64,000 bases of DNA from an uncultured virus (IMG/VR IMGVR_UViG_3300044845_000975) (taxonomy: Duplodnaviria > Heunggongvirae > Uroviricota > Caudoviricetes). Below the pieces are notes generated by a model. That model ran no database searches. It saw nothing but the letters and a program-made list of their open reading frames with translations, and had not been told where the DNA came from. Positions 5,360 to 44,810 of this stretch are shown piece after piece. The stretch lies in IMG/VR virus record IMGVR_UViG_3300044845_000975; one strand, written 5' to 3'. Position numbers and translations under genes: made by a program. How positions within the stretch are numbered: position 1 is the first letter of the stretch; each line of letters begins with the position of its first letter.

Positions 5360-6408
5360 AGGAGCTAACAGAAGAACAAAAACAATTCTTGCGCGAAAAT
5401 TTCGCCAAGACTCCAGATTTAAATGAACTCACAAGAGCCTGCTTTAATGACCCAAGTTTAGATGGGCGTAAAAAAGAAGGCCGATTAGTAAGTAAATTTT
5501 TAACTGAAAATAATTTACAATACTCTACTACTAAAAAAGTCAAGAGCGATGAGATTGAATTAACAAACGCTCAAAAAGAATTTATTATCCTACAAACTCA
5601 AGCTGGACTCTCTTCCTTAAGAATTGCTGAACTTATTTTCTCTGATCGAGAAGTAAAAAAACTAGGAATGGAGCAGCGCACTGTTTTGGATTATATTCGA
5701 TCCATTAATCCTGATTTTGTTATTGGTAGTGAAAATGCTGCTTTAACAGACTATGCTCCACCCAAAGCTTTTAGCCGTGTTCTAAAAAAAGTGAATGATG
5801 CTACAGGTTTAACTCTTGATGAAACTAAGCTATCTCGTCAATACAAGATTTGCGTGGATAGGCTCGGAATAAATTTAAACAACTCGCGTTTTGTAGCAAT
5901 CATGAACAATTATTTGTCCGTGAAAGATAGAATGCTTTTTGAGGAAGAGTTTATTCGTTTAACTTGGGACAAGCCAGACTTATCTGCTGACGAACTAAAT
6001 CTTTACATGAATGTTTGCAAGGAAATCATTAACCTTGAAGTTGTTGGTAAACATTTAAACAAATTAAATGAACAATTCGATGAAATCGAAGACCAGCAAG
6101 ACATGAGTGTTCGCTTGGCTGAAATCATCAAGGCAAAGTCTAGCGAATATCACCAGTGCGAAGGGCGAATTGAAAACCTTACCAAGAAGTTGCAGGGTGA
6201 TCGCGCTGAAAGAATGAAAAGCAGATACAAAGATAACGCTTCAATTGTTTCTCTTGTTCAAATGTTTCAAGACGAGGAAGAAAGAAAAAATATGGTTAAA
6301 ATTGCAGAAATGCAAAAACAAATCGTATCAGAAGAAGCAAACCGCTTAGAAAGCATGGGCGAATGGAAAGCTCGTATTCTTGGTTTATCTAAAGATGATG
6401 TTATTTAA
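5356..6408 (+). CDS. hypothetical protein with HTH-like and coiled-coil regions (possible terminase small subunit)
   Basis: 350-aa ORF with two LT(E/N)xQKxF helical repeats; position upstream of terminase. Confidence 0.5.
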   Translation: MKELTEEQKQFLRENFAKTPDLNELTRACFNDPSLDGRKKEGRLVSKFLTENNLQYSTTKKVKSDEIELTNAQKEFIILQTQAGLSSLRIAELIFSDREVKKLGMEQRTVLDYIRSINPDFVIGSENAALTDYAPPKAFSRVLKKVNDATGLTLDETKLSRQYKICVDRLGINLNNSRFVAIMNNYLSVKDRMLFEEEFIRLTWDKPDLSADELNLYMNVCKEIINLEVVGKHLNKLNEQFDEIEDQQDMSVRLAEIIKAKSSEYHQCEGRIENLTKKLQGDRAERMKSRYKDNASIVSLVQMFQDEEERKNMVKIAEMQKQIVSEEANRLESMGEWKARILGLSKDDVI

Positions 6409-7321
6409 ATGTTTAGAATGTCAACAATCGTTCGATAGTGAACGCAGTCTTCATGCTCATATTAAAAAGCATGATATGTTTCTTCATGATTATTATGTGA
6501 AGCATTTTCGTCGTAAAGATTTATTAACTGGCGACTTGCTGCCTTTTAAAAATAAAGAGCAGTATTTTTCTTGTTATTTTCTTAACCAAGAGAATCAAAA
6601 GATTTATTTCGACAAACAATACCCAAAAGATTTGGATGTTCAAATGATTCTTTTGGAAATGCTTTCTTCCAAAACTAAAGACTTAGTTTGTCCATCTGAA
6701 ATTATTTTAAATAGTTATGGCTTGCCAAGCATTTCTGTATATAAAAAGTTTTTTGGAACCTTCACGCACGCCTGCGCGGGCGCGGGAGGAGAACCTCTTT
6801 ACAACGGAAAAATACCACAAGATTTTGGCGAAAAAATTAACGCCAAGATTTTCATTGATACGCGAGAGCAACAACCTCTTTCGTTTCCGCAAAGCGAAGC
6901 TCTTAAGTTGGATTTGGGAGACTATGGCATTGAAAATAAATTTTTTGATTATACTTTTGTTGACAGAAAATCAGAGGGAGATTTTAAATCTACTTTGAGC
7001 CAAGACAACTACGAGCGTTTTCGCAGGGAGTTGCAAAGAGCTAGAGATCAGGATTGTTTTATCTTTGTGGTTGTAGAGAGCGACATGGGGCAGATTGAAA
7101 AAAATAACATCAAATCAAAGCATCAAGCTAACCTTGCTTACATCTATCATAATATGCGAGCTTTGCAACTAGAATTTAAAGATTGCTGTCAATTTATCAT
7201 GACTTCTAATCGAGACAACAGCATCAAACTTATACCACGTTTATTGAGGCATGGTAGAAAGCTATGGAATGTTGATTTACAATATTATATTAACGAGGGA
7301 CTTTTATATGGCTTGGATTGA
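6395..7321 (+). CDS. C2H2 zinc finger plus ERCC4 (XPF/Mus81-type) nuclease
   Basis: CLEC...HIKKH; IDTREQQP, LDLGDY, VDRKSEGDF. Confidence 0.8.
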   Translation: MMLFKCLECQQSFDSERSLHAHIKKHDMFLHDYYVKHFRRKDLLTGDLLPFKNKEQYFSCYFLNQENQKIYFDKQYPKDLDVQMILLEMLSSKTKDLVCPSEIILNSYGLPSISVYKKFFGTFTHACAGAGGEPLYNGKIPQDFGEKINAKIFIDTREQQPLSFPQSEALKLDLGDYGIENKFFDYTFVDRKSEGDFKSTLSQDNYERFRRELQRARDQDCFIFVVVESDMGQIEKNNIKSKHQANLAYIYHNMRALQLEFKDCCQFIMTSNRDNSIKLIPRLLRHGRKLWNVDLQYYINEGLLYGLD

Positions 7322-15982: not shown

Positions 15983-17122
15983 TTAAACGTATAGGACACC
16001 TGTATTAGCGCCTGACATGAAGATACCGTGAACGGAATCGTTAGGACCACCAATCTGAGTTGAGAAGGTAATATCCACACTCTTGTTAGAGCCAATGTCA
16101 GATGAATAGCTTTCGCTGTCAAGACGAGCAGCTTTGAACACATAACGAACAGCTTCTTCGGAAGAGCCAGGCTTTTTAATAGCGAGAGTAATATCTCTTT
16201 CAGCACCATCGTCAATCATGTTTGCTAGGTTGCGAGCTTGCACTTCGTTAACAAGAGCATTAACGCTCATTGTTGCAGTAACAGGGAAGTCTGTTACACG
16301 GGCGAAGGCGAAGCGGCTTCCAAGACGTTCGATTGGCGTACGGCTCATTGGGAGACTTAAGCTAACGCTCTGAATGTTGATTGCGTTATTGCTTCCATCA
16401 ACTGTTGATGTAGGAGTGCCACCAGAACCAGTGAATGAGCCGAAGCTGAGAGTAATATCACCAGGGCGAAGAGCGGTTACACCGTCACCAGTTCCAGGGA
16501 CTGGAAGTTGAACGCTTAGCCCAACTGATGTACCAGATTCAGGATTAATAGCTGGGCTTGGTACTCCAGTTACACCTGCGCCAGAAGAGTAAGTAGCAGC
16601 ATTAAAGCCAAGACCTTCAACTGAAACTGAGATGGTAGGAAGATCGCCCACAGCAGCATTAAGAGTATAGTCAGTGATGAAACCATTGCCAACACCAATA
16701 ACACCTTTACCGCTTAAACCATTGGTAGCAGTAGTGCCAGAAGCGTTGTCAAAGTTAAGGTCAATACCTTCGGCTGAGGTTACAATGTAGAAATTGCGAC
16801 CTTCGGAGCTGATCATTTGACCAGATGCAAAGTTAACGCCGCCTCCGATAGCGCCAGTTTGAACGGCGAAACCCAAAGCTCTTTCATTGAAACCATCTGC
16901 TAGGTAGTAGGAGAGATCAAGGCTTACAGTGGGTGACTGAAGCACAAGAGCGTCGATACGCGCTAGCTGACCGAATTGGTTAACGTCTTGACGAGTGATT
17001 TCAAAACTATAGTTTGCACTCTGTACACGTTTTAGTTGTAAGTGTGCGCCTGTGCCCGTAGCATAGATTCCGCTGCTTGAGAACAGCCCTTCTGATTGAT
17101 AAATTACGCGATTTCTTGCCAT
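15983..17122 (-). CDS. major tail tube protein
   Basis: 379-aa beta-rich protein, high-expression codon bias, RVQSANYSF...DVNQFGQ motif, ends at terminator. Confidence 0.7.
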   Translation of the reverse strand: MARNRVIYQSEGLFSSSGIYATGTGAHLQLKRVQSANYSFEITRQDVNQFGQLARIDALVLQSPTVSLDLSYYLADGFNERALGFAVQTGAIGGGVNFASGQMISSEGRNFYIVTSAEGIDLNFDNASGTTATNGLSGKGVIGVGNGFITDYTLNAAVGDLPTISVSVEGLGFNAATYSSGAGVTGVPSPAINPESGTSVGLSVQLPVPGTGDGVTALRPGDITLSFGSFTGSGGTPTSTVDGSNNAINIQSVSLSLPMSRTPIERLGSRFAFARVTDFPVTATMSVNALVNEVQARNLANMIDDGAERDITLAIKKPGSSEEAVRYVFKAARLDSESYSSDIGSNKSVDITFSTQIGGPNDSVHGIFMSGANTGVLYV

Positions 17123-17168
17123 AAAAAGAAAGTTTGACTTATTTACATTTAAATTTGTGAATTGAGAA

Positions 17169-18041
17169 CTAAATTCTTGGGTATCTCATCATTGAGACAT
17201 CGAAATCAATAAAGCCAACATACAAATCATTAACTAGTGACTTGCGAGGTTTGTCATTCATTTTTGATACAGTCACTTTGTCGATAAAGTATTTATTATT
17301 ATTAATATATTGATTTTTTAAATCTTGATAGTTATAATATCCACTTTTTAAATCTCCATATTCTGTATATGGATAATCATTAAATGGAATATCAACAATC
17401 ACCTCGTTAAAGGAGTCTGCAAAAATAGACAAGATGCCATCTAATTGATAAGGATTTTCAGCAATAACCACAGCATTCAAATTTGTCATTGTTTGATTCA
17501 TTCCGCCAAAAGCAAACGGCTTGTTTTGAAAAGCTGCGTTACAAATGTAAACGGCTGGAACTACTTGGTCATAAGGTTTGACATAACTTACATCTTCATC
17601 GGTTCCAATGCGGCGATTCAGAATAAATTTCTTCTCAACAATCAAATCTTCTTCAGTATCGTTTGAATAATACACGTTAAAATCTTTAACTGCAAAAGAC
17701 CCTGTAACTATTGATCCAGTAGCTAAACCACTAATTAAAGTGCGGCCATTATCAAAGTCTAAAATTCTTTGAGCAGTATCATTACTAGCTCCAGTAGCTC
17801 GACCATAGAAATTATTTCCAACATAAACTCCAGAAGGAATCGTTGCTCCAGAAATTGAGGAGTCGCTTACCCATTGTTTATATTGGCTGCCAAAAGCATT
17901 ATAAGTATTTGGTAGTCTTTCGTCAGAGTAATAGAAAAATTGACCAGTTGAATTGGTGTATGCTTGCCCCTTGGTCAACAAATAATTGTCGAACCATAGC
18001 ATGAAAGATGAGGCTAATTGGTGTTGATATTGGGGGATCAT
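17169..18041 (-). CDS. putative tail terminator/neck protein
   Basis: position next to tail tube; PAVYI...FAFGG. Confidence 0.5.
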   Translation of the reverse strand: MIPQYQHQLASSFMLWFDNYLLTKGQAYTNSTGQFFYYSDERLPNTYNAFGSQYKQWVSDSSISGATIPSGVYVGNNFYGRATGASNDTAQRILDFDNGRTLISGLATGSIVTGSFAVKDFNVYYSNDTEEDLIVEKKFILNRRIGTDEDVSYVKPYDQVVPAVYICNAAFQNKPFAFGGMNQTMTNLNAVVIAENPYQLDGILSIFADSFNEVIVDIPFNDYPYTEYGDLKSGYYNYQDLKNQYINNNKYFIDKVTVSKMNDKPRKSLVNDLYVGFIDFDVSMMRYPRI

Positions 18042-18661
18042 AATATTTTAGAGATAACGATTACTTTATCAAGTTGTTCAAATTTCTTTTTATACTTATT
18101 AAGTAGTGCGGATATATAAGACGTATTTGAAAACTTGCCTTTTCTAACTTGAGTTTCAATTTGGATACCTGTGCCTGAATTACTTTTTAATGCTTCCGTG
18201 TTTAAATATTTACCAAATCCAGAGATTCCTCTTTCAATACCTTCTGCCCAGCTTCTTCCTGTAGCCCACTTTAACGGAGTTTCTGCAAAAATTTGTTCTC
18301 TCGAAGGCATGTAAATTTTCATTAAAAACCCTTCTTGAGTTTCTCTTGAGTATTCTATTTTAGACAAGCTTAAAAGTCCTTCAATAACATCAGTTGGATT
18401 ATCTCCTTCATCGAAACCAATAAAAGAAAAAAGATTACCGTAGCCATCTAAAGTTCCACTAGTATTTTCTGCGTATGGTCCAGCCTTTATTTCAACAGTT
18501 ACTGGATGATTGCGAAATTCCTCAATCATTTCTCTTTTAATTTTATTAAAAGCAGTTTCGATTCTTTCTATAAAAGTTTTACTATAAACTTTTACAATTT
18601 CTTGTCTCAGAGCAGTTTGAAGCTGTCTTTGAAGATCTCGTTGTGTAATTTTTTTAGCCAT
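18038..18661 (-). CDS. putative neck/tail completion protein
   Basis: 207-aa ORF coupled to neighbours in the neck block. Confidence 0.5.
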   Translation of the reverse strand: MAKKITQRDLQRQLQTALRQEIVKVYSKTFIERIETAFNKIKREMIEEFRNHPVTVEIKAGPYAENTSGTLDGYGNLFSFIGFDEGDNPTDVIEGLLSLSKIEYSRETQEGFLMKIYMPSREQIFAETPLKWATGRSWAEGIERGISGFGKYLNTEALKSNSGTGIQIETQVRKGKFSNTSYISALLNKYKKKFEQLDKVIVISKIL

Positions 18662-19125
18662 TATTCATCTATTGGCGTTAAAACAAATTCATAATATTGA
18701 GGGCCAAACATTCCAAGAGGTTTGCCATCGCTTTTAATTGCAAAACGGCGACCATCAAGCTCAACTCTTTTAGCCTCTTTCACATAATTAAAGCCTTCAA
18801 GATTAACTTTAATTTTAACCGTTCCAGTGGGAAGGATAATTTTATCTTGACCTCCTCCTGATTGACCTCCTCCTGAGCGAGAATTTTGAAGAAATTCTTC
18901 TCCCATATCTACATATTTAATTCTAGCTTGAAAAGTTTGAGATACTTCTACTGTTGCAGTATTGACAGATTGTTGACGATATAAGGCATTGTATGATGGT
19001 GAAGAAGCTATAACGGTTCTTTGGCCGATTTTAAATACAGTAATTTCACGCGCAAAGGTATCGTGGATTTGGTCAATGATTGACTTAATGTTATTTTTTT
19101 GGTTTTCTGATAAAAATCCAGCCAT
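18661..19125 (-). CDS. putative head closure (stopper) protein
   Basis: beta-rich, RVELDGRRFAI pattern; GTGTAA motif upstream. Confidence 0.55.
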   Translation of the reverse strand: MAGFLSENQKNNIKSIIDQIHDTFAREITVFKIGQRTVIASSPSYNALYRQQSVNTATVEVSQTFQARIKYVDMGEEFLQNSRSGGGQSGGGQDKIILPTGTVKIKVNLEGFNYVKEAKRVELDGRRFAIKSDGKPLGMFGPQYYEFVLTPIDE

Positions 19126-21313: not shown

Positions 21314-24300
21314 ATGGCCGCACCAATTAATCTCCAAGCAAATGTACAAATTCAGAATCTATCTCAAATGCAGAGAGAGATTCAACAAGCTACTCAAAAC
21401 TTGAAGATTAATATGGGTGGCGGTAATGCTGCTCGTTCTCTTAGTGCTTTGTCTCAGCCCTTGGGTCGTTTAACTGGTCAAGCAGATGAGTTCTCAAAGT
21501 CTCTTGATGCTGCTAACGCCCGTGTTTTAGCGTTCGGAGCTTCTGTTGGTATTGTTAATACTCTTTCTAATGCTTTTAAAAGTCTTGTCAATTCTACTAT
21601 TGAAGTGGAAAAAGCAATTACAGCTATTTCTGTTGTTGGTGAGCAATTCGCTGGCAAAAGTAAACAACTAAGCCAAGGTTTATTTAGTATTGCCAAGGCG
21701 ACTGGTCAAAGCTTTGAGGAAGTTTCCAAGGCTGCTCTAGAGTTTTCTCGTCAAGGTTTGCAACTTGAAGATACTCTTCAAAGAACTCAAGATGCTCTTA
21801 TTCTTACTCGCTTGACTGGCTTAGACGCTTCTAAATCTGTTGATGGTCTTACAGCTTCCGTTAATGCTTTCGCTAAAGCTGGTCTTTCCACTACTCAAAT
21901 TCTTAATAAACTTGCAGCAGTTGACCAAGCTTTCGCCGTATCATCTGCCGATCTTATTGAAGGTTTCAATCGAAGCGCGGCTGTCGCTCAAAATGCTGGT
22001 GTTACATTTGATGAGCTTGCTGGTATTATTACCACACTCCAGCAAGAAACTTCTCGCGGTGGTGCTGTTATTGGTAACGCCCTTAAAACAATTTTTACTC
22101 GTTTACAAGATACTAGCACCCTTAATCAATTACAAAAATTAGGCGTAGCAGTACAAGACTTAGAAGGCAACCTTTTACCAGCCAGACAAATTTTACAAAA
22201 CCTCGCTACTGATGTTGAAGGTCTTGGTCAAATTACTAGAGCAGGTATTTTTAAAGATGTTGCTGGCACTTTCCAGATTAACCAGTTGATTTCTTTGGTT
22301 GGCGATTTAGGTAAAGCTAATAGCGTGACTGCTAAAGCAACTCAAGTTTCTGCTGGTGCAACTAATGAAGCTTTCACTGCTAATCAAAAACTTAATCAAT
22401 CTCTCGACGCAATCATTAACAAAGTTTCACTTACTGGTAAGCAACTTGGTGCGCTTTTGGGTGAGATTGGCTTGGGAGATAATTTAAAAGGAATCTTAGA
22501 TGGCATTAATTCCTTCTTGGAGGGAGCATCTAACCTTCTCCAAGGCGACGATCTTGGTTCACGCTTTGCAAAAGGAATTGTAAAAGGTATTGGTTCTGTT
22601 TTGAGCGGCCCTGGTATTGGATTATTTTTAGCCATTATTGCAAAACTAAGTTTTGATTTGGCCAAATTCGGCGTTCAAAGCTTAAAAACTTTCTTTAATA
22701 TTGGTCAATCCGCCAAAGAGCAGCAGCAGGTTCAAGAATCTATTGTTCAGACTCTTATACGCAATAAAACTGTTTTAAGTCAAATTTTAAATACTCAAGG
22801 AGGTCAAAATGCGCAAGCATCTGCTTTCTTAAATATCTTAAAACAAGAAGAACAAGTATTGCAAAATATTAGAACTCTTGCTGGTGGTATTGCAGCGCCA
22901 GTTATTGCTCAAGGTTATCGCTCTGGTTCTCAAGGATTAACTCGTCTTTCTGCTGGTGGTTATTTACCTGCGCAAGAAGCCTCAGACGTTCGCCGTGGAG
23001 TAGGTGGCGCATCACCAAGCTCTAAAGTTGTATCTATTCCTAATTTCGCATTTGGCGGCGGTAAGCGCGGCACAATGATTGCTAACACTAGCGAATATAT
23101 TGTTCCTAATTATGCTGGTGGCGGTTCCGCTATCTTTAATCAAGATATGGTGAAAACCATGGGCTTGCCAGCAGGGGCAAAAAAGATTACGGCATCTGGT
23201 GGGTTTATCCCAAATTTTTCTGGAGGTACAAAAGATAATCCTCTTGATGTTCATCAAAAATATGCATTGCTTGTTAATGATCTTAATTCTCCAAGACTAA
23301 ATCAGTTAGTTTCTTATAAACCAAGAAATGAAGATAAAGTTTATTATAAAGCAAATGTTTATGGTATTGGTGAAACTGAAAACTTACAAGGTATAGGGCA
23401 AATAGATAGATTTAAATCTCAATTTAGTACAAAATTTTTAGAAGAAAAATATAAAAATTTAGCTTTAGAAGATATAGAAAAATATGCTAATGCAGTTATA
23501 GGTCAACCTATATCTCCAGTAGCACAAGTTAAATTAGCTAATAAAGGTTCTGTACCAAGTCTAATCGGTTCTATTTTTGAATCAGCGATTATTTCTGCTC
23601 TTAAAGACCCTGATTTAATAGAAGCTCAATTAAACCGCGATGATAATGCTCCTTTTGATTTTAAAGGTGTAGCTAAATCACAATTTAATAAATTTTTCGG
23701 AATTGATGAAAATATTAATTTTGTTGAAGCTAAATATGCTGATAATGATGCCACAAGACAAAGTTTTGCATCTAAGATTTATAGATTGGAATCTGGAAAA
23801 TATATTGACAAACCAAAAACTGAAATAAGTACAGACCTTAAAGGTAGATGGCTTAGCTATAATAATTTATCAAGCAAGAAGTCAATTGAAGCAAAAGAGA
23901 TGTACAAATCAATTGCTCAAGATTTAGGACTAGATCCAATAAGAGATAGAACACAAATTAATGCATTAATGAACAAAGCAACTGGAAGAAGTTCTTCTGG
24001 TTATATTCCTAATTTTGCTAGCGATGCTCTTCAAGCTGCCATCTCTCGCGAGAGAAGCGCAGGAATTTCAGCTTCACAAATTTATGTTGATCAAAGTCCT
24101 GCGCTCAAGTCTGCTGCTAACCCAATGGGGTTAATGGTGGCTAATCGCAGGGATGAGCCTGCTGGTGGTTTTCAAGGCGTCTCTCGCGCACGCAGAGAAG
24201 GCGTGAATCCAAAGACCTATGGTGCTGCTAATGGATTTGTGCCTAATTTTGCACCAGTAGTTAGTGATACAGATCAAGTTAAAGCCAGTAAAGGTTTTGG

Positions 24301-27300
24301 CGATTTAGCTGGTAAGTTCTTTGTTTTACAAGGCGCTCTGTCCTTTTTTGAAGGTGGTTTTATTCAGGCTGGAAGCGCAGCACAAAAAGTGAATGATGCT
24401 TTGCAGACTTTAACTACTGCTTTATTTGCGTTTCAAGCTGTACAACAATTAAGCGCAAAAACTGAAACAAAAAATATTACAATAGCCACAAATAATATAT
24501 CAAAATTTAGTCAAGTTATAAAAGACGCTAAAGATAAAGTACAAAAATGGCAAAAAGAATTTGTTGCAGGTGGTGGGTCTAGAGCCTCAATAGTATCTCG
24601 CGGAGGTCGGTTGCCATCTAATACTTCTTTTGCTACACGATTAAGTTCTAGTTTAGGTACTAGTAAATTAGCTGGCAGTCTTCGTAATTTTGTTGGCAAT
24701 CCATTGGAAACAATATCTTCAACATTCAAATCTTTTACTGGAGTTGCGTTAGCTGCTACAGTTGCTCTTAAAGGATTTAATGATATTGCTGCTTTATTTT
24801 ATACAAGAGGAGATAAGCTTGATTCTTCTTTAGAATTATTATCATCTTCTGCATCAAAAGCCTCATCTTCTTTAAGTGATATTGATAAAGCTGTATTAAA
24901 AAGCATAAATACTAGCTTAGGAGATATTGGAATTGGAGGAACAATAACTAAATTGTTTTCCAGCTTAAGTCCGATGAATTTGGGGCGCGAAACTGTTGCT
25001 TATAATTCTGGCGGACAAACTCAAATTACAAATCTTAAGGGAGGCCAAACAGATCAAGATTTTGCAAAAGTTCAACAAGAATTGAGTTCTTTAATTTTTA
25101 GTAGCTTAAGAGCTTCTCTTCCAAAAGCGCCAGAAGTTGCTATTGCAAATGATACAAAAGCTAAAATAAGCGAATTATTACAAGCTTCTACAGAAAATGG
25201 TATTCTTGATTTGCAAAAAGTTATTAATTCTGATTATGTTGAGAGTTTAAGAAAAGTTTCTAATGAAACTGCTAAAAAAATTGAAATTATAACTGCTAAT
25301 GCTGAATTTAATAAACCAGTTGAGCAATTTAAAAAAATAATTGAAAAAATTATTTCAGATGGAGCTTTAGTTGTAGAAAATTCATCAAAGACATTAGAAC
25401 GTGAATCTCAATTAATAAGCTCAATTACCTCTAGTAAAGCTTTCGCTTCCTTATCTGATAGTTCAAAAATTATTTTTGAAATTAATTCTTCATCTACTCA
25501 ACTAAAAAAAGATATAGAAAATAGAATATCTAAATTCGCTAGCGATGCTCAATCTAGTTTATTAGAATTTATACCTGAATTGGGATTAAACCCCGAAACA
25601 GCACAAAATCTTAAAGATAGCATTGGAGGATTGGGTAAATCTACAACTGAAGAAGAATTTGTTAAAAATTTACAATCTTTTAACGAAGCTCTTGAAAAGT
25701 CTGGTCAAATAGCTGATCAATCTAAGCTTCAAGCTTTAGATAAAAAAATTAGTGAAACAACTAATAGTTTTAAAAACTTACAAAAACAAGTTGAAAATGA
25801 ACAAGCTATTTTAGCTTTTAATAATTCAGAAAAATTATTAGAAGCTCGCGCCTATGATACTTATAAGAATAAGTTAGCTAGTTTTGTCAATTCAATGGTA
25901 GAAGGAGAAAAAAAACTAATTCAACTTCGTGGCGAAATCGAAAGAATTGATATTCAAAAACAAGGCAATATTGATATTTTATCTGCCCAAGCTAAAACTA
26001 GCAGAGATGCTATTTCAATTCGTAGAGAAGAAGAGTTAAAAGCTTTTAATGCTAAAAATCCAAAAGAAAAAGACGCAGCGCTTACTGAAAAGACGTTAGC
26101 AATAAAAAGAGAATTTTTCACAAAAGAAAATATTGCTGGATTAAATAGAAATACTGATGCTCTTAATGCTTTAACAAAACTTTTAGCAGCCGATTTCATA
26201 GCAAAAATTGATTCTGCTATTAGCGCTCTTCAAAATGGTAGTAATGAATTAGACAATACATTAATGTCAAATGTAGATAAGATTCAATTGCCAGAAGAGA
26301 TGAAACGTCAAGATGCCTTAAAATATTTAACAGATTTAAGAGGAGTCTATTCTCCTTCTGCAACTTTACCAATGAAGTCAGGAGGAAATTTAAAAACTGC
26401 TGAAGGATTTATAGATCAAATTACAGGATTTATTCAAAGCGGTCAAGGTTTTGCAGATATACAAAGTAATATTGAACAGTTTCAAGCTCCTCAAGATATG
26501 AGGGATAGATTGATAGAAGTATCTAAAGACTTGTATGAATCATATCAAAAAGAAGGCGCTGTTTCAAGTCAAACTCTAGAAACATTAAAAAAGAGATTTG
26601 ATATAGAGCTTGAAACTTACGATGCAGTTAATAGTTATTCTAGCAAATTAGAAGCTCAAACTAGAGCATTAAGAGATTCATTAAGTGATCCTCAAACTGT
26701 TGGAGAATTTGTTTTTAAACAAAGAGAGATAGCGAGAAATGAAAGAGAACAAGCTAAGGGATCACCTGATGAACAAAGAGCGTATCGTTCTTCTTTTGGA
26801 TATGGTTTATCTCAAGGATTTGATGAAGTAGAAAAAAGAACTTTTGATTTTAAGAATGAGTTGGGTAAAGAAATTCCACAACTTTTCTCATCTAATCTTA
26901 CCCAAGGATTGAATGATGCAATCAGTGGTGCAAAATCCCTCAAAGATGCTCTGCGCGATGCAGCAACAAGCTTTTTCCAAGCTATTACTCAAAAGAATAT
27001 TGAAAATATCGCTAACCTTGTCACGGGCGGTGTCGGCAATGTCGCACAATCTTTCTTCGCTTCTGGTGGTCAAGTTAATGGCGGTTCTGGTGTTAAAGAC
27101 GACGTTCCAGCAATGCTCATGGGCGGAGAATATGTCATTAAAAAATCATCTGTTCAGAAATATGGTTCTAAATTCCTTGACTCCTTAAATAGAGGCAGTA
27201 TAAAAGGCTTCGCGAGTGGTGGCGGTGTTCAAAGTGGCTCTGGTGGATTCTACGCCCCTGGAGAATATGGAACTGGTGGCATTCGCGGTAAAAGAGAGCT

Positions 27301-28414
27301 TTTAAGTTTTGCTACTCAAAGCTTTAGCAGCGGTCAATATGATACCATGGGCGGTTTTGGAATGAGCGGAGCATCTGTTTCTTTAGAGGCAGAAAGCGGC
27401 AGACTTTCTCAATTTGGTCGCCAGAATAATCCAATGTTCGAGCGCGTTCAAGAAAGCAAGCAGCAAGCTTTTGATGTTTATCTTCAACAATTAAAGCAAG
27501 AAGAACAATATCAAGAGCAGCTTAAAGAAATGGAAGCGAGAGAAAAGGAGCGTCAAAAACAATTAGTCACTTCTATCGTTAGTGCGGTAGTTAGTTCTGT
27601 TGTTTCTGTTGCTGGTGCTAGAGCTAAAATAGGAGCAGAGAATCAATCAGCGTTAAATCAATTATCTGGACAACCATCTGGATTACTTTCGAGCTTAAAG
27701 GGTGCTGGTAAAGGCTTATTTACTTCATTTGGTAATTCTTTGTCAGGCGAAGCATTAACGCTTAGAGCTATAACAAATCCTGCATTACAAAACGCTTCTA
27801 TTATTGGATCAGGAAGAGGAGTTTCACAAGCTGGGTCTGCCTTATTAATGTCAGGTTCAAATACATATAGTAAAGGAATTATTCAAACTGGAGGAAATTC
27901 ACTAATTGATTCTGATTCAAATGTTGATTTATCTAAATTGAATCTGCAAGATTATGGTAGCGATGGTTCTTATAATCCTTATAATCCGTTACTTCCTCCT
28001 CCTAATGGCTGGACAAAAAGAGCTTCTGGAGGTTTAATTTCTGGCGGTTCAGGAATGCGTGATGACGTTCCAGCAATGCTCTCTGGTGGCGAGTTTGTTC
28101 TCAATAATCGCGCTACTCGCAAACTGGGAGTTCAGAATCTTAATCGTCTCAATGCTGGCGAAACTAACACTGGAGAAGGCGACTCAAGCGCAGTTACAGA
28201 ATCTCTAATTTCTAAGCTAGACGAATTAATTCAAGCAACCCGCGAATCTGCTGGAGATAATGTTGTAGTTAATGTTTCTTCAAATGAAGCTCAAGCAAAA
28301 ACAGAAAATACCAACGGTAACGAAAAAGAACTTCAGCGCAAAATCAAACAAGCAGTACTAGATGTTATTGCTCAAGAGAAACGCCTCGGAGGTTCACTAA
28401 CTAAAGGAAAATAA
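21314..28414 (+). CDS. tail tape measure protein (TP901-type core) with inserted cargo domains
   Basis: 2366 aa; EFSRQG, SSADL..G..R, GGAVIGNALKTIFTRL core; C-terminal ASGG/DDVPAML.GGE(Y/F)V modules. Confidence 0.92.
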   Translation: MAAPINLQANVQIQNLSQMQREIQQATQNLKINMGGGNAARSLSALSQPLGRLTGQADEFSKSLDAANARVLAFGASVGIVNTLSNAFKSLVNSTIEVEKAITAISVVGEQFAGKSKQLSQGLFSIAKATGQSFEEVSKAALEFSRQGLQLEDTLQRTQDALILTRLTGLDASKSVDGLTASVNAFAKAGLSTTQILNKLAAVDQAFAVSSADLIEGFNRSAAVAQNAGVTFDELAGIITTLQQETSRGGAVIGNALKTIFTRLQDTSTLNQLQKLGVAVQDLEGNLLPARQILQNLATDVEGLGQITRAGIFKDVAGTFQINQLISLVGDLGKANSVTAKATQVSAGATNEAFTANQKLNQSLDAIINKVSLTGKQLGALLGEIGLGDNLKGILDGINSFLEGASNLLQGDDLGSRFAKGIVKGIGSVLSGPGIGLFLAIIAKLSFDLAKFGVQSLKTFFNIGQSAKEQQQVQESIVQTLIRNKTVLSQILNTQGGQNAQASAFLNILKQEEQVLQNIRTLAGGIAAPVIAQGYRSGSQGLTRLSAGGYLPAQEASDVRRGVGGASPSSKVVSIPNFAFGGGKRGTMIANTSEYIVPNYAGGGSAIFNQDMVKTMGLPAGAKKITASGGFIPNFSGGTKDNPLDVHQKYALLVNDLNSPRLNQLVSYKPRNEDKVYYKANVYGIGETENLQGIGQIDRFKSQFSTKFLEEKYKNLALEDIEKYANAVIGQPISPVAQVKLANKGSVPSLIGSIFESAIISALKDPDLIEAQLNRDDNAPFDFKGVAKSQFNKFFGIDENINFVEAKYADNDATRQSFASKIYRLESGKYIDKPKTEISTDLKGRWLSYNNLSSKKSIEAKEMYKSIAQDLGLDPIRDRTQINALMNKATGRSSSGYIPNFASDALQAAISRERSAGISASQIYVDQSPALKSAANPMGLMVANRRDEPAGGFQGVSRARREGVNPKTYGAANGFVPNFAPVVSDTDQVKASKGFGDLAGKFFVLQGALSFFEGGFIQAGSAAQKVNDALQTLTTALFAFQAVQQLSAKTETKNITIATNNISKFSQVIKDAKDKVQKWQKEFVAGGGSRASIVSRGGRLPSNTSFATRLSSSLGTSKLAGSLRNFVGNPLETISSTFKSFTGVALAATVALKGFNDIAALFYTRGDKLDSSLELLSSSASKASSSLSDIDKAVLKSINTSLGDIGIGGTITKLFSSLSPMNLGRETVAYNSGGQTQITNLKGGQTDQDFAKVQQELSSLIFSSLRASLPKAPEVAIANDTKAKISELLQASTENGILDLQKVINSDYVESLRKVSNETAKKIEIITANAEFNKPVEQFKKIIEKIISDGALVVENSSKTLERESQLISSITSSKAFASLSDSSKIIFEINSSSTQLKKDIENRISKFASDAQSSLLEFIPELGLNPETAQNLKDSIGGLGKSTTEEEFVKNLQSFNEALEKSGQIADQSKLQALDKKISETTNSFKNLQKQVENEQAILAFNNSEKLLEARAYDTYKNKLASFVNSMVEGEKKLIQLRGEIERIDIQKQGNIDILSAQAKTSRDAISIRREEELKAFNAKNPKEKDAALTEKTLAIKREFFTKENIAGLNRNTDALNALTKLLAADFIAKIDSAISALQNGSNELDNTLMSNVDKIQLPEEMKRQDALKYLTDLRGVYSPSATLPMKSGGNLKTAEGFIDQITGFIQSGQGFADIQSNIEQFQAPQDMRDRLIEVSKDLYESYQKEGAVSSQTLETLKKRFDIELETYDAVNSYSSKLEAQTRALRDSLSDPQTVGEFVFKQREIARNEREQAKGSPDEQRAYRSSFGYGLSQGFDEVEKRTFDFKNELGKEIPQLFSSNLTQGLNDAISGAKSLKDALRDAATSFFQAITQKNIENIANLVTGGVGNVAQSFFASGGQVNGGSGVKDDVPAMLMGGEYVIKKSSVQKYGSKFLDSLNRGSIKGFASGGGVQSGSGGFYAPGEYGTGGIRGKRELLSFATQSFSSGQYDTMGGFGMSGASVSLEAESGRLSQFGRQNNPMFERVQESKQQAFDVYLQQLKQEEQYQEQLKEMEAREKERQKQLVTSIVSAVVSSVVSVAGARAKIGAENQSALNQLSGQPSGLLSSLKGAGKGLFTSFGNSLSGEALTLRAITNPALQNASIIGSGRGVSQAGSALLMSGSNTYSKGIIQTGGNSLIDSDSNVDLSKLNLQDYGSDGSYNPYNPLLPPPNGWTKRASGGLISGGSGMRDDVPAMLSGGEFVLNNRATRKLGVQNLNRLNAGETNTGEGDSSAVTESLISKLDELIQATRESAGDNVVVNVSSNEAQAKTENTNGNEKELQRKIKQAVLDVIAQEKRLGGSLTKGK

Positions 28415-33059: not shown

Positions 33060-33192
33060 TGATATAATCTTGCTTGGCGTTTGCTGGCAGTCTATTATAC
33101 TGCTTCTTTGCGCGTCTGTAAACTCTTTTATTCACAGAACTTTCAGTTGGTTTAATAATAGCTCGTAGTTTTTTAGATACAGTTTTTCTCAT
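32980..33192 (-). CDS. small basic hypothetical protein
   Basis: 70-aa ORF coupled to neighbours. Confidence 0.5.
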   Translation of the reverse strand: MRKTVSKKLRAIIKPTESSVNKRVYRRAKKQYNRLPANAKQDYINGLSELYEQVVAKQHRKPVAEGESEG

Positions 33193-33647
33193 AGTTTTTT
33201 AATGTACGTTTCAGAATCTTTAATATACCCTAGTCTTTGATATACTTTTTTTAACTTGCTTGAAGTTGGATAGTTTTCGACGCAACTCATAGATATTAAT
33301 CTAATTTTTTTATTCTTTGCAAATTTTTCAGCTTGTCGAAAAAGCTGGAAAGAAATGCGCGGATTATTCGAAATCCAAAAAAATTCATTAAACATTTTCT
33401 CTCCGAAGATGGTGTTCATATTTTCGAGAAACATTATAACGCCATCAGCTTTATCATTGTTAATACTAGCCCATGTATGCATTGTATTTGTTAGCAGGCT
33501 AGTATGACCCCAACTATTAATTACTGACTGTGCAGAAATTTTTGAAAATGCATGTCCATATAATTCGTTTTCGCGAAAAAAATGTTTATCTAAATCCTGC
33601 CAAACTTTTGCGAATTCTTCAGGATTAGTTATTTTTTTAATTGACAT
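33189..33647 (-). CDS. GNAT-fold acetyltransferase-like protein
   Basis: AEKFAK...KVYQRLGY C-terminal GNAT pattern. Confidence 0.6.
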   Translation of the reverse strand: MSIKKITNPEEFAKVWQDLDKHFFRENELYGHAFSKISAQSVINSWGHTSLLTNTMHTWASINNDKADGVIMFLENMNTIFGEKMFNEFFWISNNPRISFQLFRQAEKFAKNKKIRLISMSCVENYPTSSKLKKVYQRLGYIKDSETYIKKL

Positions 33648-34375
33648 GCGTTTACGAGAGTTAGCAGCTTGCGACACTCTTTAACTGGAATATCTTCAAA
33701 AGATTTCCAATCCTTTGCATTTTCATTCTTATAAGTTTCGTCTTTCCAGAATTGGCGCAGCAATTTCAAGAAGTCTTCAAAATCTGGGTGGCCTGCTTGT
33801 TTACAAGCATTATGAAGAGCGCCATGTGGAGTAAGAGTTTGAACAATTGATTCACTCTCTTCGTAGGCAACTTTATTTTTTGACTTGTCGATTTCATCAT
33901 CGCCAACAATGTGAATATTTAGATAATTGCGAACAGCACGAACAAAGGCGCGATTCTCAGCAATTGGTTCCAAAAACTTAACGCCAAATCCAGAACAATT
34001 CTCAGAAGTTGCGTTTGCTGTGCTAGTAAATGTTTGAGCGTTACCATCGCTTTCATAATTTGGCATCCAACTAATGCAGCAAACTGCTGTGGCATAATGG
34101 GAAGAGATTGTTTCAATTTTAAATTGAACGTCAAGGAAGCCCCTGAGTCTTGCTAGTTCTTTGATGCCAGCAAGCTTAACAAGAAGCTGGTGATCGCTAA
34201 GACCTTCAATAGAGTCTGGCACTTGAAGTTTGCGAGTTTCAAACCAATCCTTATTAGGATATAAATGCTCTGGCTTAATCATGGCTCGCCAGTTAATTGA
34301 GCCGTCTTCATTAAATTTATATTCAACGCCTTCAATAAGGCCAAGTTCGTTTCTCTTATAATTTGAAGGATTCAT
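33629..34375 (-). CDS. putative ssDNA annealing protein (Rad52/Sak-like)
   Basis: LAGIKELA...AENRAFVRAVRNYLNI...DE. Confidence 0.55.
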   Translation of the reverse strand: MNPSNYKRNELGLIEGVEYKFNEDGSINWRAMIKPEHLYPNKDWFETRKLQVPDSIEGLSDHQLLVKLAGIKELARLRGFLDVQFKIETISSHYATAVCCISWMPNYESDGNAQTFTSTANATSENCSGFGVKFLEPIAENRAFVRAVRNYLNIHIVGDDEIDKSKNKVAYEESESIVQTLTPHGALHNACKQAGHPDFEDFLKLLRQFWKDETYKNENAKDWKSFEDIPVKECRKLLTLVNACQLKK

Positions 34376-35528
34376 AGATATAGTAGTGGTCTAAATCCCC
34401 CCAGAAGGAGGGTTGGTTAATTACGCTGCCCCACTTGTCGCTTGCAACAATACCTGCATCAACATGGGCTTTAGAGTAATAACGCTTTCCATTTGATAAT
34501 ATATCCTTCTTTGTTAAGAATCTTAAATTTTGTTTATCATGAAGCTCATTAATTATTTTTTCATTAATTTTAGCTTCTGGTTCAATTAAAAAGTCAAAGT
34601 AATATTCTCTAACTTCACTAATAGCTTTTTGATTAGAACATTCTCCAATCATAACGATTCCTAAATTTTTAACAAACTGCAAATATTCTAGCGAGAATTT
34701 GTTTGTTTCATTAATGAGGAAAGTTATTTCTTTGATATTGTTGCGACAACGCTTTAATACTTCTGGATGAATAGGTTGATCAGAAACGATATGGATATTG
34801 TATTCTGATGCCCATTGCATCAAGCATTCTTCATTAAAGAAGTAATCCATGCGAATATTTAAAATTTGATTTTTCAACTCAGCCGCTTCCCCAAAGAAGT
34901 TCGGGATAATTTCAATACAAGGTTTTGAATATTGTTCTCCAATATGCAAAGTGTTCATTGAAAGAGTTGAATTCAACCCAAGCAATTCACATGCATTTTT
35001 TACAATTTCTTCTGGCTTGATTGTATTAATGCTTTTTGGGCTTTCTTGATAACTGTAACTTGGTTTTTTACCTTTTCTATCAGCCTCAAGAATTCTTACT
35101 TTTTCTTTTGTGCTCCAGTATGGGTATGCGTGTTGAGGATAAATATGAGAATAAAGACCAATAATAGGAATATCATAAACGCTGGCTAAGTGAATTGGAA
35201 AACTATCAATACCAAAATGCAGACTGGAATTTTTCACAATATAGGCTGTCTGCTTTCTAGAAAAACCTAAATAAGATTTGTCAGCCTCTCTCAACATTGG
35301 GTCATCTGCACCACCAATTTGATAAATTTTATAACCAAGGGGTGATAAAATATTCTTCAACAAGTCTAAGGTTTCTGGAAAGAATTCATAATACTTGGAA
35401 TCAATTTTATTATCAACATGAACAGTAATATATTTCTCATCTGTTACTGGCATGTAGTGAGGTTCAAAAATTGGCTTACCAATTTTGACTCCTAAATTTT
35501 TGGCGTATTCTTCGATTAAATGACTCAT
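34356..35528 (-). CDS. glycosyltransferase family 9-like (heptosyltransferase fold)
   Basis: IYQIGG, LHFGIDSFPIHLAS...IGLY. Confidence 0.8.
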   Translation of the reverse strand: MSHLIEEYAKNLGVKIGKPIFEPHYMPVTDEKYITVHVDNKIDSKYYEFFPETLDLLKNILSPLGYKIYQIGGADDPMLREADKSYLGFSRKQTAYIVKNSSLHFGIDSFPIHLASVYDIPIIGLYSHIYPQHAYPYWSTKEKVRILEADRKGKKPSYSYQESPKSINTIKPEEIVKNACELLGLNSTLSMNTLHIGEQYSKPCIEIIPNFFGEAAELKNQILNIRMDYFFNEECLMQWASEYNIHIVSDQPIHPEVLKRCRNNIKEITFLINETNKFSLEYLQFVKNLGIVMIGECSNQKAISEVREYYFDFLIEPEAKINEKIINELHDKQNLRFLTKKDILSNGKRYYSKAHVDAGIVASDKWGSVINQPSFWGDLDHYYIYESFKL

Positions 35529-35529
35529 G

Positions 35530-35922
35530 TTAGTCTCCTTTTTCTACGCGAATAGAATCTTCATCTTCGTGGTGAGTTGAAAATTCCATAATTTCAGAAT
35601 CTTCCAAGGCTAATAGTCTATGCCGAAGACCAGTTGGCACATGAAAAACATCACCAGCAGAAAGTTCTTGAATAATGGCGCATTTAATATCATCACTGTA
35701 GCCATAGTATAGAACTACTCGACCCTTATTAATGTAAAAGGTTTCCGTTTTCTTTTCATGATAGTGCCAAGAAAGCTTCTTGTCTTTGTTCATGAATAAT
35801 AGTTTACCGCAGTAATCATCGCGATTAACAATCCATTTTTCGTAACCCCAACCTTTAGGGACGAAATGAGAAGTTTTCCAACCTTCTTTACTGAAGTTGG
35901 ATTTGAGTTCGATCTTTTCCAT
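35530..35922 (-). CDS. cupin, sugar-phosphate isomerase-like
   Basis: KGWGYE, SWHYH..KTETF, GD.FHVP.G.RHR. Confidence 0.8.
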   Translation of the reverse strand: MEKIELKSNFSKEGWKTSHFVPKGWGYEKWIVNRDDYCGKLLFMNKDKKLSWHYHEKKTETFYINKGRVVLYYGYSDDIKCAIIQELSAGDVFHVPTGLRHRLLALEDSEIMEFSTHHEDEDSIRVEKGD

Positions 35923-37777
35923 TATGATGATATGTAAAATGTTTTTGAGTTGTTACGAAGGGCAAGAAAGCAATTTCAAAATAACCCTTATGAGAACCTT
36001 GTCCCTCTAAGAATAGAAGGTTATCAAAGATTGGAGAATACGGAAGAATTTTATGAACTGCTGGGTGCTCATTAACAATTTCAAAAAATTGAGGTAACGT
36101 AATAAAATAAATATTATATTCTGGATATAATTCTTTCAAATTTGATAAAAGAGAATTAACCATTAAAACATCTCCAGCAGATTGCGGCATCACTACAGCA
36201 ATTCTTCTTCCAGCGTCATCTTTATCCAGAACATCTTGAATATCAACTTCTTTCTGTTCTTTCTGAGAGGCTGCTTGACGAAAATGGTTATAAATTCCTT
36301 CTCTATTTAAATCTGATTTTAGTCTGCCAACCCAATGCACGCAAGCTTGGCTGTTTTTATCTATTGTTTCAGCAAGCATATTTTTATACAAGTCAATAAT
36401 CCATTCAGCATCGTCTTGGATAGATGGGTTCGGGTAGTTTGGATTTTTCTCTTTTGAGGGAATGTTCCAATCTTCAATAAGAGGAGCATTATCAAAGAAT
36501 TCTTCCAATTGCTTGCAAACGTTTTCGATAGAACAATTATCAATAACAAACTGTCTTGCAATCTCACCCATCTTTTGCCTCTTCTCAGGTTTCATATTAT
36601 AAACCTTTGAAAGTTGTTTTGCAATGCTTGAAGGAAGCGTTGAAGCTTTAATGAATTGAGTTCCAGGCTCTCTGTATTCGGCCCAAGACAAAGGCATTCC
36701 TCCGCTATCCTCTTGGCAGTAATCTTCGCCACATGAATAGTCAGTAACCAAAGTAATAAGCTTTGTTAATTTAGCTTCTTGAACAGGAATCTCTTGACCA
36801 CCGCTAGTGAATGGGTGACAATAAACATCCATGATGTTGTAGATTTCATTCAACTGACTTTCATTAACTCCATTAGTTATATTGGTTGTTGAGACTGATT
36901 TTGCCGAGCCGCAATATTTACAATTTAAATCCTGACCTGTAAATGGACGAATTTCATACTGTTTGCAGTTCTTGCAGAAGTAAGTTGTGCATACATCTTC
37001 TGGCATGATGTTTTTTTCGCGTATTAGGCGCGGAATATCCCATCCTTCAGACCAGTGAGTATGAAGAAGCAGTTTTGGTTTTGCCTGCGGATTTTGACGC
37101 TTAAATTCAAGAAAGCCATCAAGCATGTTTGGAACGCTTTTTCTAAGCTGATTTCTAAATACAAAACCAACGACAAAATTATTTTGCAGATTGAATTTTT
37201 GTTTTAATTTCTTTTTATCAAGCTCTGACAAAGCGTAAAACTGATTTGTATCAAGAGTTCCCCTGACTGTTTTAACATTATCGTAACCAATTTCTTTTAA
37301 ACCTTTTTCTGCAAAGGAGGCCCAAACAAAGTAGTTCTTAACTTTTGCAGCAGCGTCAACCGCATCAGGAAGAATTGGCATAGAATCCAAAGTAGTCCAA
37401 ATTGCAGAAGTAATATGATTCCACCAAGGCTTATCCCAAAAACCATTGAAAGCCCAAACATCTTCAATACCCAAATAAACATCAGGCTTGATTTCATTAA
37501 TTGCTCGATCAATGCCAAAAGCTCCGTAGCTAGCAGCGCGTTCTTTGTTACCATCTCCCTTGATGGAAGCAGCAACATGTGGCAGCGGCATTGAGCCATG
37601 ACACTGCCAAGGCTGACGTTTGCAATCAGGCGCATCCCAAGGCAAGCCGTTTGCTAATTCAATTACTTCGTATTTGCCAGTCTTGTGAAGATGGCGCAAA
37701 ATATTTTTAGCATTTTTCCCAAAACCCGTGAAGAGTCTTGAAAAATTGGTATGGATTAGGATACGCTTTTTTCTCAT
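35888..37777 (-). CDS. GT4-like glycosyltransferase with zinc-ribbon insert and C-terminal GT9-like domain
   Basis: TGFGK, RNQLRK, GGQEIPVQEAK; CKNC...CKYC; SAGDVL. Confidence 0.8.
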   Translation of the reverse strand: MRKKRILIHTNFSRLFTGFGKNAKNILRHLHKTGKYEVIELANGLPWDAPDCKRQPWQCHGSMPLPHVAASIKGDGNKERAASYGAFGIDRAINEIKPDVYLGIEDVWAFNGFWDKPWWNHITSAIWTTLDSMPILPDAVDAAAKVKNYFVWASFAEKGLKEIGYDNVKTVRGTLDTNQFYALSELDKKKLKQKFNLQNNFVVGFVFRNQLRKSVPNMLDGFLEFKRQNPQAKPKLLLHTHWSEGWDIPRLIREKNIMPEDVCTTYFCKNCKQYEIRPFTGQDLNCKYCGSAKSVSTTNITNGVNESQLNEIYNIMDVYCHPFTSGGQEIPVQEAKLTKLITLVTDYSCGEDYCQEDSGGMPLSWAEYREPGTQFIKASTLPSSIAKQLSKVYNMKPEKRQKMGEIARQFVIDNCSIENVCKQLEEFFDNAPLIEDWNIPSKEKNPNYPNPSIQDDAEWIIDLYKNMLAETIDKNSQACVHWVGRLKSDLNREGIYNHFRQAASQKEQKEVDIQDVLDKDDAGRRIAVVMPQSAGDVLMVNSLLSNLKELYPEYNIYFITLPQFFEIVNEHPAVHKILPYSPIFDNLLFLEGQGSHKGYFEIAFLPFVTTQKHFTYHHNGKDRTQIQLQ

Positions 37778-37778
37778 A

Positions 37779-38069
37779 TTATTCAGCAGGCTCGTAAGTC
37801 GAGTTAAAAATATCAATTTTGCACGGATAAATTTCTCCTTTAACTCCTTCAATCAGCATATCCTGTTTGCTCATCTTCATAATTCCTTCTAGAGTTGGAA
37901 TTAAATAGCATTCGTCATTTTCATGAGTAATGGAATGTCCTTTATATTCAAAACTCCACGGCATTTTGTTCGGACCATGTACACTTTGCGGATTTGCATT
38001 TCTTCCGTGTTCCACCAATTCATCAAATGAAATGGCTTCAATAACTACTGGCTTTTTTCTATATTTCAT
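37779..38069 (-). CDS. conserved small phage protein (YRKKPVVIEA family)
   Basis: MKYRKKPVVIEA...IPTLEG...GVKGEIYPCK.DIF..TYE. Confidence 0.8.
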   Translation of the reverse strand: MKYRKKPVVIEAISFDELVEHGRNANPQSVHGPNKMPWSFEYKGHSITHENDECYLIPTLEGIMKMSKQDMLIEGVKGEIYPCKIDIFNSTYEPAE

Positions 38070-38073
38070 AAAA

Positions 38074-38535
38074 TTACTGTTCGGAATTTTGAACCTTCGA
38101 TTCTAAAATTTTAACTAGTGAACTTTCTAGAAAGACTCGAAGAGTTTCCGCTTCTGATAGTTCTACGCCCATGCCAAATTTTTGATTTCCATTGCGAGAA
38201 ATGCTGAATGAGAAAGCTTGGCCGCCATCCTTTTTAGTGTAGCGAGTCCAAGAGATTTGAGTCTTGTTTTCTTGAAATGTGTGGAAGGCTTTCCAGTCGC
38301 CATAAGTGCGAATAGCGTGAATGAGTCCACCGATTTCAATTTCGTTTAGTTTGATGGCGATTGTCTTTTCTGGATTATCTTTATTACCTGAGAAAGAACC
38401 GTTTTTTGTTTGCTCGTTCCAAGAAAATTGCTGGATACCATTGACGTAAACTGTGGGAGCGCCCTTGGTAGAAAGCTGAAAGGAGAATGCGCAACCTAGG
38501 TTTTTGCTATTGGGTTTATAGAAGGCTAAATTCAT
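38074..38535 (-). CDS. hypothetical protein, possible PC4/Whirly-like ssDNA binding
   Basis: 153 aa with duplicated beta-beta-beta-alpha pattern. Confidence 0.5.
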   Translation of the reverse strand: MNLAFYKPNSKNLGCAFSFQLSTKGAPTVYVNGIQQFSWNEQTKNGSFSGNKDNPEKTIAIKLNEIEIGGLIHAIRTYGDWKAFHTFQENKTQISWTRYTKKDGGQAFSFSISRNGNQKFGMGVELSEAETLRVFLESSLVKILESKVQNSEQ

Positions 38536-38586
38536 ATAGGATAGTAATTTTTTTATAAAATGTTTCTAGTATTAGTATAATTAAAT

Positions 38587-39549
38587 ATGGAAGAAAAAGT
38601 TTTATGTTTATTAACAGATTACGTTTTAAATAGTCCTATTTTTAACGCATGGGAAAAATTCTTAATTGAAAAAAAAATAGGAGTTCGTAAAGTTTCCGTT
38701 ACTGGTGGATGTAAAGATTATTTAAAATTATTTCAAGAATATCCTAATATAATTACATGGAATTGTAGGACGAAGCATTCTTGGATAGAGGCTCAAAATA
38801 AAAATGTTTTATTTATTGACAATTCTTTATTAATTCAAAATTCTGGAATTTATTTAGACAATAAAGGTTTTTTTTCTGACTCTAACTTGAGAAAAAGATT
38901 TGATCAAATAGAGGATATTCAAAATTGTCGTATTGAAACAATAAATAAAACTATTTTCAATAAATTCAAATATAAATGGTTTTCTCATGAAACTCAAAAT
39001 AATAAAGTATTAGTTGCTCTTCAACATCATTTAGATTCTAATATTAATTTTCAATTCCCTTTTGGAGAAAAATTTACAGATAAAGTTGAAGCCACTTTAT
39101 GTTTTATTAAAACATATTTGCCTGATTCTTATGAAGTTACTATAAGACCACATCCAAGATTTTTAGATCATTGGAATGAAAATATTGAAAAATATAAAAA
39201 ATCTTTTTGGAACCCTCAATGGAATATTGATTTATCTAAAAGTGCTTATAGCCAACTTCAAGAATATAATTATCTCATATCTGTTAATTCTACTTTAGTT
39301 CAAGAAGCTATCTGTTTAGGTATTCCAGTAGCGACTTTGGGAGTAGGTACATTTTCTGATCATGAAGTTACATTAGAATGCGCAACAAATTTTAATAATC
39401 TGTCTAAATTAAATTATTATAAACCTTCTCAACAGAAATGCCTACAATATATTAACAAAGTATTAAAATATAATATTCTTCATCATAAAGACTCTTTTGA
39501 AGATGTCATTAATAATGAAGAATGGTTAAAATTTTATCAAAAAATTTAA
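38587..39549 (+). CDS. capsular polysaccharide biosynthesis (KpsS/KpsC-like) GT-B protein
   Basis: LVALQ...D, IRPHP, SVNST...EA...GIPV. Confidence 0.65.
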   Translation: MEEKVLCLLTDYVLNSPIFNAWEKFLIEKKIGVRKVSVTGGCKDYLKLFQEYPNIITWNCRTKHSWIEAQNKNVLFIDNSLLIQNSGIYLDNKGFFSDSNLRKRFDQIEDIQNCRIETINKTIFNKFKYKWFSHETQNNKVLVALQHHLDSNINFQFPFGEKFTDKVEATLCFIKTYLPDSYEVTIRPHPRFLDHWNENIEKYKKSFWNPQWNIDLSKSAYSQLQEYNYLISVNSTLVQEAICLGIPVATLGVGTFSDHEVTLECATNFNNLSKLNYYKPSQQKCLQYINKVLKYNILHHKDSFEDVINNEEWLKFYQKI

Positions 39550-40513: not shown

Positions 40514-40522
40514 ACGGATACT

Positions 40523-40554
40523 AAAAAAAAAGAGGGGTTTTTCAACCCCTCTTT
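40523..40554 (-). terminator. intrinsic terminator
   Basis: minus strand AAAGAGGGGTT-GAAA-AACCCCTCTTT plus T-run. Confidence 0.85.
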
Positions 40555-44809: not shown

Positions 44810-44810
44810 C

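Follow-up and report, generated by a model that had tools for sequence, protein, structure and literature searches.

The middle of a tape measure protein (TMP) from an uncultured tailed phage is a cargo bay that holds one or more self-contained modules, which are fenced by the peptide motif [RN]-A-A-x-G-[FY]-[IV]-P-N-F-A and exchanged among related phages, with recombination taking place in the DNA that encodes the motif or in the flanks, which are conserved. The TMP gene (21314..28414, + strand; 2,366 residues) lies in a 64,000-nucleotide stretch of the virus IMGVR_UViG_3300044845_000975, which is not a whole genome and is referred to here as the window. The single module of the window TMP is a nuclease-type cassette (23219..23998, + strand; 260 residues, TMP residues 636-895), and this family of slots nearly always has one PD-(D/E)XK-type module whose predicted catalytic set is intact. 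Judged from the sequences, the tail probably brings ready-made enzymes into the host cell.

A fenced cargo slot in the tape measure protein

The original prediction had recognized the carrier as a TMP, and this is borne out by a PF10145 core (residues 127-318, E 4e-28) as in TP901-type TMPs, by matches to PHROG TMP families, by the length of the gene and by its position in a tail module, next to terminase and tail genes. The same phage codes for PolIII alpha, DnaB, primase, RecA and ribonucleotide reductase. Between the head genes and the TMP gene lie four opposite-strand genes (15983-19125, - strand), an unusual inverted block within a structural module; by eye, its products include a tail-tube-like protein of 379 residues and proteins of head-tail joining, but neither Pfam nor PHROG gave a match.

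In the six frames of the window, G[FY][IV]PNF is found only at 23201, 23999 and 24233, each time within the TMP open reading frame (ORF), for which about 1e-4 copies are expected by chance. The first copy, GFIPNF (23201..23218, + strand; ASG precedes it from 23192), and the second, GYIPNF (23999..24016, + strand), bound the cassette. All three copies had been anticipated, including ASGGFIPNFS at 23192, with the enclosed segment put at about 255 residues. A conserved 5' block (22940..23200, + strand) with 72-100% identity across 80 loci lies upstream; it has no Pfam match and contains two extra PN[FY] copies at 23039 and 23105. The conserved 3' block downstream (24017..24232, + strand; AI.RE ... 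NP.GL.V.N.RDEP; 69% mean column identity in alignment A2) ends at the third motif, GFVPNF (24233..24250, + strand). A hydrophobic, membrane-like stretch (22577..22675, + strand; TMP residues 422-454) was located upstream of the slot by a Kyte-Doolittle scan.

Searching with the 5' flank returned 139 viral loci; 80 of them were retained and 76 were parsed into 54 distinct slots, the four unparsed loci comprising two with variant motifs and two without a 3' block. Once 3'-flank searches were included, the total came to 254 loci and 216 ORFs with both flanks, and 212 of these, after four variant-motif ORFs had been dropped, yielded 127 distinct slots with 212 cassettes. The slots span 204 to 1,077 residues and hold one cassette in 72 cases, two in 34, three in 13, four in 7 and five in 1, while none of the 127 is empty. 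ORFs with only the 3' block detected were parsed in 22 of 35 cases and contain up to seven segments; nine of these 22 long arrays have no match to the window-type nuclease profile.

Exchange of the modules is visible between relatives. One relative (L003) shares 92% identity with the window protein upstream of the slot and 100% downstream, but only 15% within it, and the DNA identity tract stops at 23221 and restarts at 23999, the first base of the second motif, with 94.6% identity over 260 nucleotides. Two further relatives (L077 and L078) are 100% identical upstream and carry unrelated slots. Internal ends of shared-DNA tracts lie within 15 nucleotides of an inner motif in 21 of 40 cases, compared with a mean of 1.4 and a maximum of 6 in 2,000 random draws, the pairs behind this count not being independent. 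As 12 of the remaining 19 ends sit in single-cassette slots, exchange occurs inside cassettes too. The motif is invariant as a peptide while its synonymous codons vary freely, which indicates that selection acts on the peptide and that the motif DNA provides short homology for exchange. Exchange at the motif is almost certain. Swapping of the segment had been proposed from the window alone, and the outcome named beforehand as contrary to it, an invariant and helical slot in relatives, did not occur.

The original prediction envisaged a single nuclease effector. The window TMP has one module only; in relatives the slot is an array of many enzyme types. These types include a GNAT module (Pfam E 4e-8), P-loop modules (AAA_30, E 6e-4) and a nucleotidyltransferase-like domain (E 0.003), together with protein-kinase-like, HAD phosphatase, HExxH zincin and ADP-ribosyltransferase-like modules and further nuclease types, which are called by motif only. 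Most companion modules have no Pfam match, among them the HExxH module, which occurs in a cluster of five cassettes. In L111:2920-5700, L156:985-6000 and L253:3504-8000, six to seven modules (of GNAT, HExxH zincin, kinase-like, HAD, ADP-ribosyltransferase-like and unassigned type) are strung together in TMPs whose lengths range from 2,700 to over 4,700 residues. A 487-residue cassette in L093:3595-5055 combines a P-loop with a HIGH-type nucleotidyltransferase-like domain and presumably resembles NadR-type NAD enzymes.

The cassette had also been described as more AT-rich than its surroundings. This is correct for the two flanking blocks (GC 0.47-0.48 and third-position GC, GC3, 0.30-0.31, versus 0.29 and 0.10 in the cassette), and of 125 cases, 122 have a slot that is AT-richer than either flank. 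However, positions 24257-26899 are equally AT-rich (GC 0.32, GC3 0.13; AGA/ATA/TTA codons 10.9% versus 10.8% in the cassette). The contrast therefore arises partly from the GC-rich flanks and is by itself no evidence of foreign origin. These positions, which follow the third motif, form a second variable TMP region with 16-41% identity in most relatives.

Nuclease-type module and predicted dimer

In the cassette, IFESA starts at 23573, APFDF at 23648 and FVEAKY at 23720, and the predicted catalytic residues are E756 (23579), D782 (23657), E805 (23726) and K807 (23732). The E, D and ExK elements and the position of FVEAKY agree with the original prediction, which gave 23651 for APFDF, the position of its proline, and expected P-D in a second motif that reads P-F-D. 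The order of the PD-(D/E)XK signature, with E in a helix, D in a strand and (D/E)xK in a strand, is present (secondary structure H111-127, strand 147-148, E168-172).

The catalytic set is intact in all 47 aligned cassettes despite a mean column identity of 17%, in all 130 strong profile matches and, by eye, in 15 weaker ones. Among the alignment columns, only those of the four predicted catalytic positions and of a neighbouring G-x-x-F are nearly invariant, and the third acid is E in 67 and D in 63 of the strong matches, an alternation as in active PD-(D/E)XK enzymes. The median ratio of nonsynonymous to synonymous substitution rates (dN/dS) is 0.275 (16 pairs). A related cassette (L215) was modelled with a pLDDT of 89, and structure comparison gave 50 matches, at least 44 of which we take, by fold class, to be PD-(D/E)XK nucleases. 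The best structural neighbours are the type II restriction endonucleases PspGI, Cfr10I, Bse634I and SgrAI, with weak fold scores, and the nearest structures also include the CdiA-CT DNase and TseT. For the window's own core, the atlas neighbours are the Hjc, PDDEXK_14, Mrr_cat, ThaI and HinfI clusters (0.80-0.85), which serve as leads only. The conservation, the L215 matches and the atlas neighbours support the predicted fold and catalytic set, and a nuclease fold of the cassette is very likely. The weak fold scores would also be compatible with a nuclease fold devoid of catalysis, acting as a DNA- or protein-binding pilot or as a decoy for host defences, but near-invariance confined to the predicted catalytic positions and G-x-x-F, and a third acid that alternates between E and D, make this very improbable.

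A homodimer was predicted with a score of 0.87, versus 0.00 for the best of three controls, with at least 98% contact agreement between runs and a pLDDT of at least 88. The mark applied here was passed by 20 of 30 solved homodimers and by 1 of 23 single chains, counts that apply only roughly to this cassette, and the score may owe something to likeness with solved restriction-enzyme dimers. The predicted dimer is symmetric and has a helical interface that includes the helix of the catalytic glutamate. Thus, the models portray the window module as a compact domain that pairs symmetrically via the E756 helix, as in type II restriction enzymes.

A nuclease that recombines at sharp boundaries could also be a selfish in-frame homing endonuclease that spreads by invading an essential gene at a conserved site and is tolerated by the TMP. 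The nuclease could drive conversion between differing alleles, the slot is AT-rich, and TMP genes interrupted by homing endonuclease genes are known, in the form of introns in ICP1 (bioRxiv 10.1101/2023.03.23.533998). Yet the same fence holds kinase, GNAT, HAD and zincin modules, which are incapable of homing, and neither an intron nor, by eye, intein junction residues are present. Fixed homing genes are expected to decay, but the absence of empty cognate alleles among the 127 slots is matched by the absence of a decayed catalytic set in 145 cassettes. These results weaken the homing explanation, which we consider improbable.

Proposed release, candidate targets and possible self-protection

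We moderately favor a reading in which the modules are cut out, packed in the tail lumen and ejected, and then fold, dimerize and cut nucleic acid early in infection. The motif would be cleaved during tail assembly or on ejection, the released pieces would ride in the lumen and exit before the DNA, and the modules would act within the first minutes of infection. The closest precedent for cleavage is the T5 TMP pb2, which is cut after R1127 and whose cleaved piece remains in the tail (PMC10038345). Around R1127, pb2 reads S-F-V-P-R/A-E-G-G (the slash marks the cut), the sole [FY][IV]P in its 1,219 residues, and the site can be aligned to the fence consensus either by R/A-x-G-G or by F-V-P. This is a likeness and not a test of cleavage. 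A domain of 60 residues (ASGG...DDVPAML.GGE[YF]V) occurs in two copies in the window TMP's C-terminal portion (27053-27229 and 28019-28183; hhalign 99.9%); the second copy opens with R-A-S-G-G and closely matches the R/A-E-G-G of T5.

The motif might instead be an uncut structural connector and recombination handle, so that an ejected nuclease would stay tethered to the membrane-anchored TMP and act at the entry point. In phage P23-45, an RNA polymerase is fused to the TMP (PMC10770324), transfer without cleavage is known for some polyvalent proteins (PMC5512222), and copies of the fence motif also bound small non-enzymatic blocks and stand in close tandem (e.g., the IPRFAKG repeats of P0014). 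Against this stand the resemblance to the mapped T5 site and the presence of G, P and N at all 298 distinct junctions tallied, which is partly by construction of the search pattern; we regard a permanent tether as distinctly unlikely.

A third possibility is that the modules are excised from a late polyprotein while the tail is assembled and do their work in the producing cell, in host DNA breakdown, packaging or late counter-defence, without being ejected into the next host. A folded two-fold dimer would be hard to accommodate in the tail, whose lumen is taken up by a three-stranded coiled coil (PMC10713586), and the length of the slot is not compensated by a shorter TMP remainder (Spearman +0.30, n=75). 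However, late functions require no fusion to a TMP, and yet each of the 10 matches found among 1.84 billion representatives is a TMP or a piece of one, and no free-standing copy was found; in the three genomes searched, two of them rated complete, the single profile match lies within the TMP and there is no orphan cassette. T5, moreover, retains its cleaved piece in the tail (PMC10038345). Action confined to the producing cell is therefore rather unlikely.

Delivery of a nuclease would raise the matter of self-protection. The TMP gene directly follows a conserved tail gene in all 106 loci that could be tested and is directly followed by one in 79 of 94 (with no tblastn match in the remaining 15), which leaves no room for an adjacent immunity gene. 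As for DNA methyltransferases, PF00145 and PF01555 are absent from six of six related genomes and PF02086 from five of five, and none was found among 58 scanned ORFs of the window, itself part of a genome. Restriction-type words are strongly purged: CCGG is absent from the window against 31 expected copies, and GATATC, CTGCAG, ATCGAT, CAGCTG, GAGCTC, CATATG, GGCGCC, GAGACC and GTAGAC are also missing. The purged words are common to two related genomes (G001 and G002), and six relatives have purged 15-31 words (13-31 across these genomes). Such purging suggests that the hosts have many restriction systems. Close relatives have the same purged set whatever cassette they carry, and the enzyme's own site is not identified by it. 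Because restriction-type words are purged and no methyltransferase was found, the phage could be spared without an immunity gene if the enzyme were site-specific or methylation-dependent, and purging may be a way to carry such a nuclease safely.

Given delivery, the leading candidate targets, although short of probable, are sites that lack methylation in the DNA of competing phages, plasmids or prophages; methylated host DNA is a tentative second choice, RNA appears unlikely and non-specific DNA more unlikely still. We tentatively propose that, in a large family of aquatic phages, the TMP serves as a programmable injection magazine in which a cleavable peptide fences exchangeable host-takeover enzymes. 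Its near-obligatory, restriction-like dimeric nuclease would tell self from non-self by methylation or site absence, and since the phage is purged of host restriction sites, methylated host DNA or site-bearing competitor DNA would be cut and the phage spared without an immunity protein.

A region of the window at 33189-52126 encodes glycosyltransferases (35888-37852, 40913-41977), methyltransferases, a GDP-mannose dehydratase and an acetyltransferase, which may act on the virion, the host surface or DNA and could bear on self-protection. It also contains a Tad2-like Thoeris anti-defence protein (40569-40916, - strand; PF11195, E 2.5e-18) and an ORF that resembles it by eye only (37779-38069, - strand). 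Further nucleases are ERCC4-type (6380-7321, beside the terminase), endonuclease VII/HNH-like (43556-44242), GIY-YIG (57164-57922) and PDDEXK_1 (57912-58940).

Comparison with known systems

TMPs are known to carry single cell-wall enzymes or, once, an RNA polymerase, and an Rpf domain is known from the TMP of a mycobacteriophage (PMC1084345). Full-text searches, which most subscription journals lie outside, returned no description of a motif-fenced array or of a TMP that contains a nuclease. If the nuclease is the constant part of an exchangeable array, the lumen of the tail would become a general path by which early effectors travel and a place where phage and host are in conflict, and the fence would provide TMP processing with a recognition sequence that can be tested. 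Within the family there are also more than 140 divergent nuclease domains with intact predicted catalytic sets, whose specificities may be new, and its architecture is a natural model of how proteins can be loaded into the tail of a phage.

T5 pb2 likewise is a TMP with an enzyme domain parted by proteolysis at a site resembling the fence (PMC10038345), but it releases one C-terminal muralytic piece aimed at the periplasm, whereas the modules described here lie inside the protein, recur along it, can be exchanged and have predicted targets in the cytoplasm. Gp96 of the Thermus phage P23-45, a TMP-fused virion RNA polymerase, works on nucleic acid at an early stage of infection, as is proposed for the cassette; it is a single N-terminal enzyme, and the account in PMC10770324 describes no repeat-fenced, swappable array. 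Type II restriction enzymes (PspGI, Cfr10I, Bse634I, SgrAI) are the best structural neighbours and share the helical dimer interface predicted for the cassette, which differs by residing in a virion protein, by an apparently permuted strand order and by the lack of a detected cognate methyltransferase.

Two further systems resemble the cargo bay in its manner of working. The original prediction compared it to polymorphic toxins, and the comparison holds for the manner of variation: as in toxins that bear Tox-REase domains (Zhang et al. 2012, PMC3482391), which share the E, D, ExK signature, and in MuF toxins of temperate phages (PMC5576092), a variable enzyme recombines on a constant carrier. 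Membership does not follow, because the cassette is internal (636-895 of 2,366) rather than C-terminal, several modules can stand in series, and neither an adjacent immunity gene nor orphan cassettes nor a Tox-REase Pfam match was found. Polyvalent proteins, which occur in phages and conjugative elements (Iyer et al. 2017, PMC5512222), also combine disparate enzymes in one virion-associated polypeptide for which proteolytic processing is proposed, and the kinase, GNAT, ADP-ribosyltransferase and zincin peptidase classes named for injected polyvalent proteins recur among the companion modules of relatives (GNAT by Pfam, the others by motif). The main text of that paper, its online supplements aside, mentions neither 'tape measure' nor 'REase', and the hallmark domains MPTase, ArdC-N and LPD have no Pfam match in the window TMP. 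The bay differs from polyvalent proteins in that its carrier is a TMP, every module is fenced by a peptide and the nuclease is the constant member. Enzymes in TMPs are already known, and what is encountered here is a TMP that works like a polymorphic toxin or a polyvalent protein.
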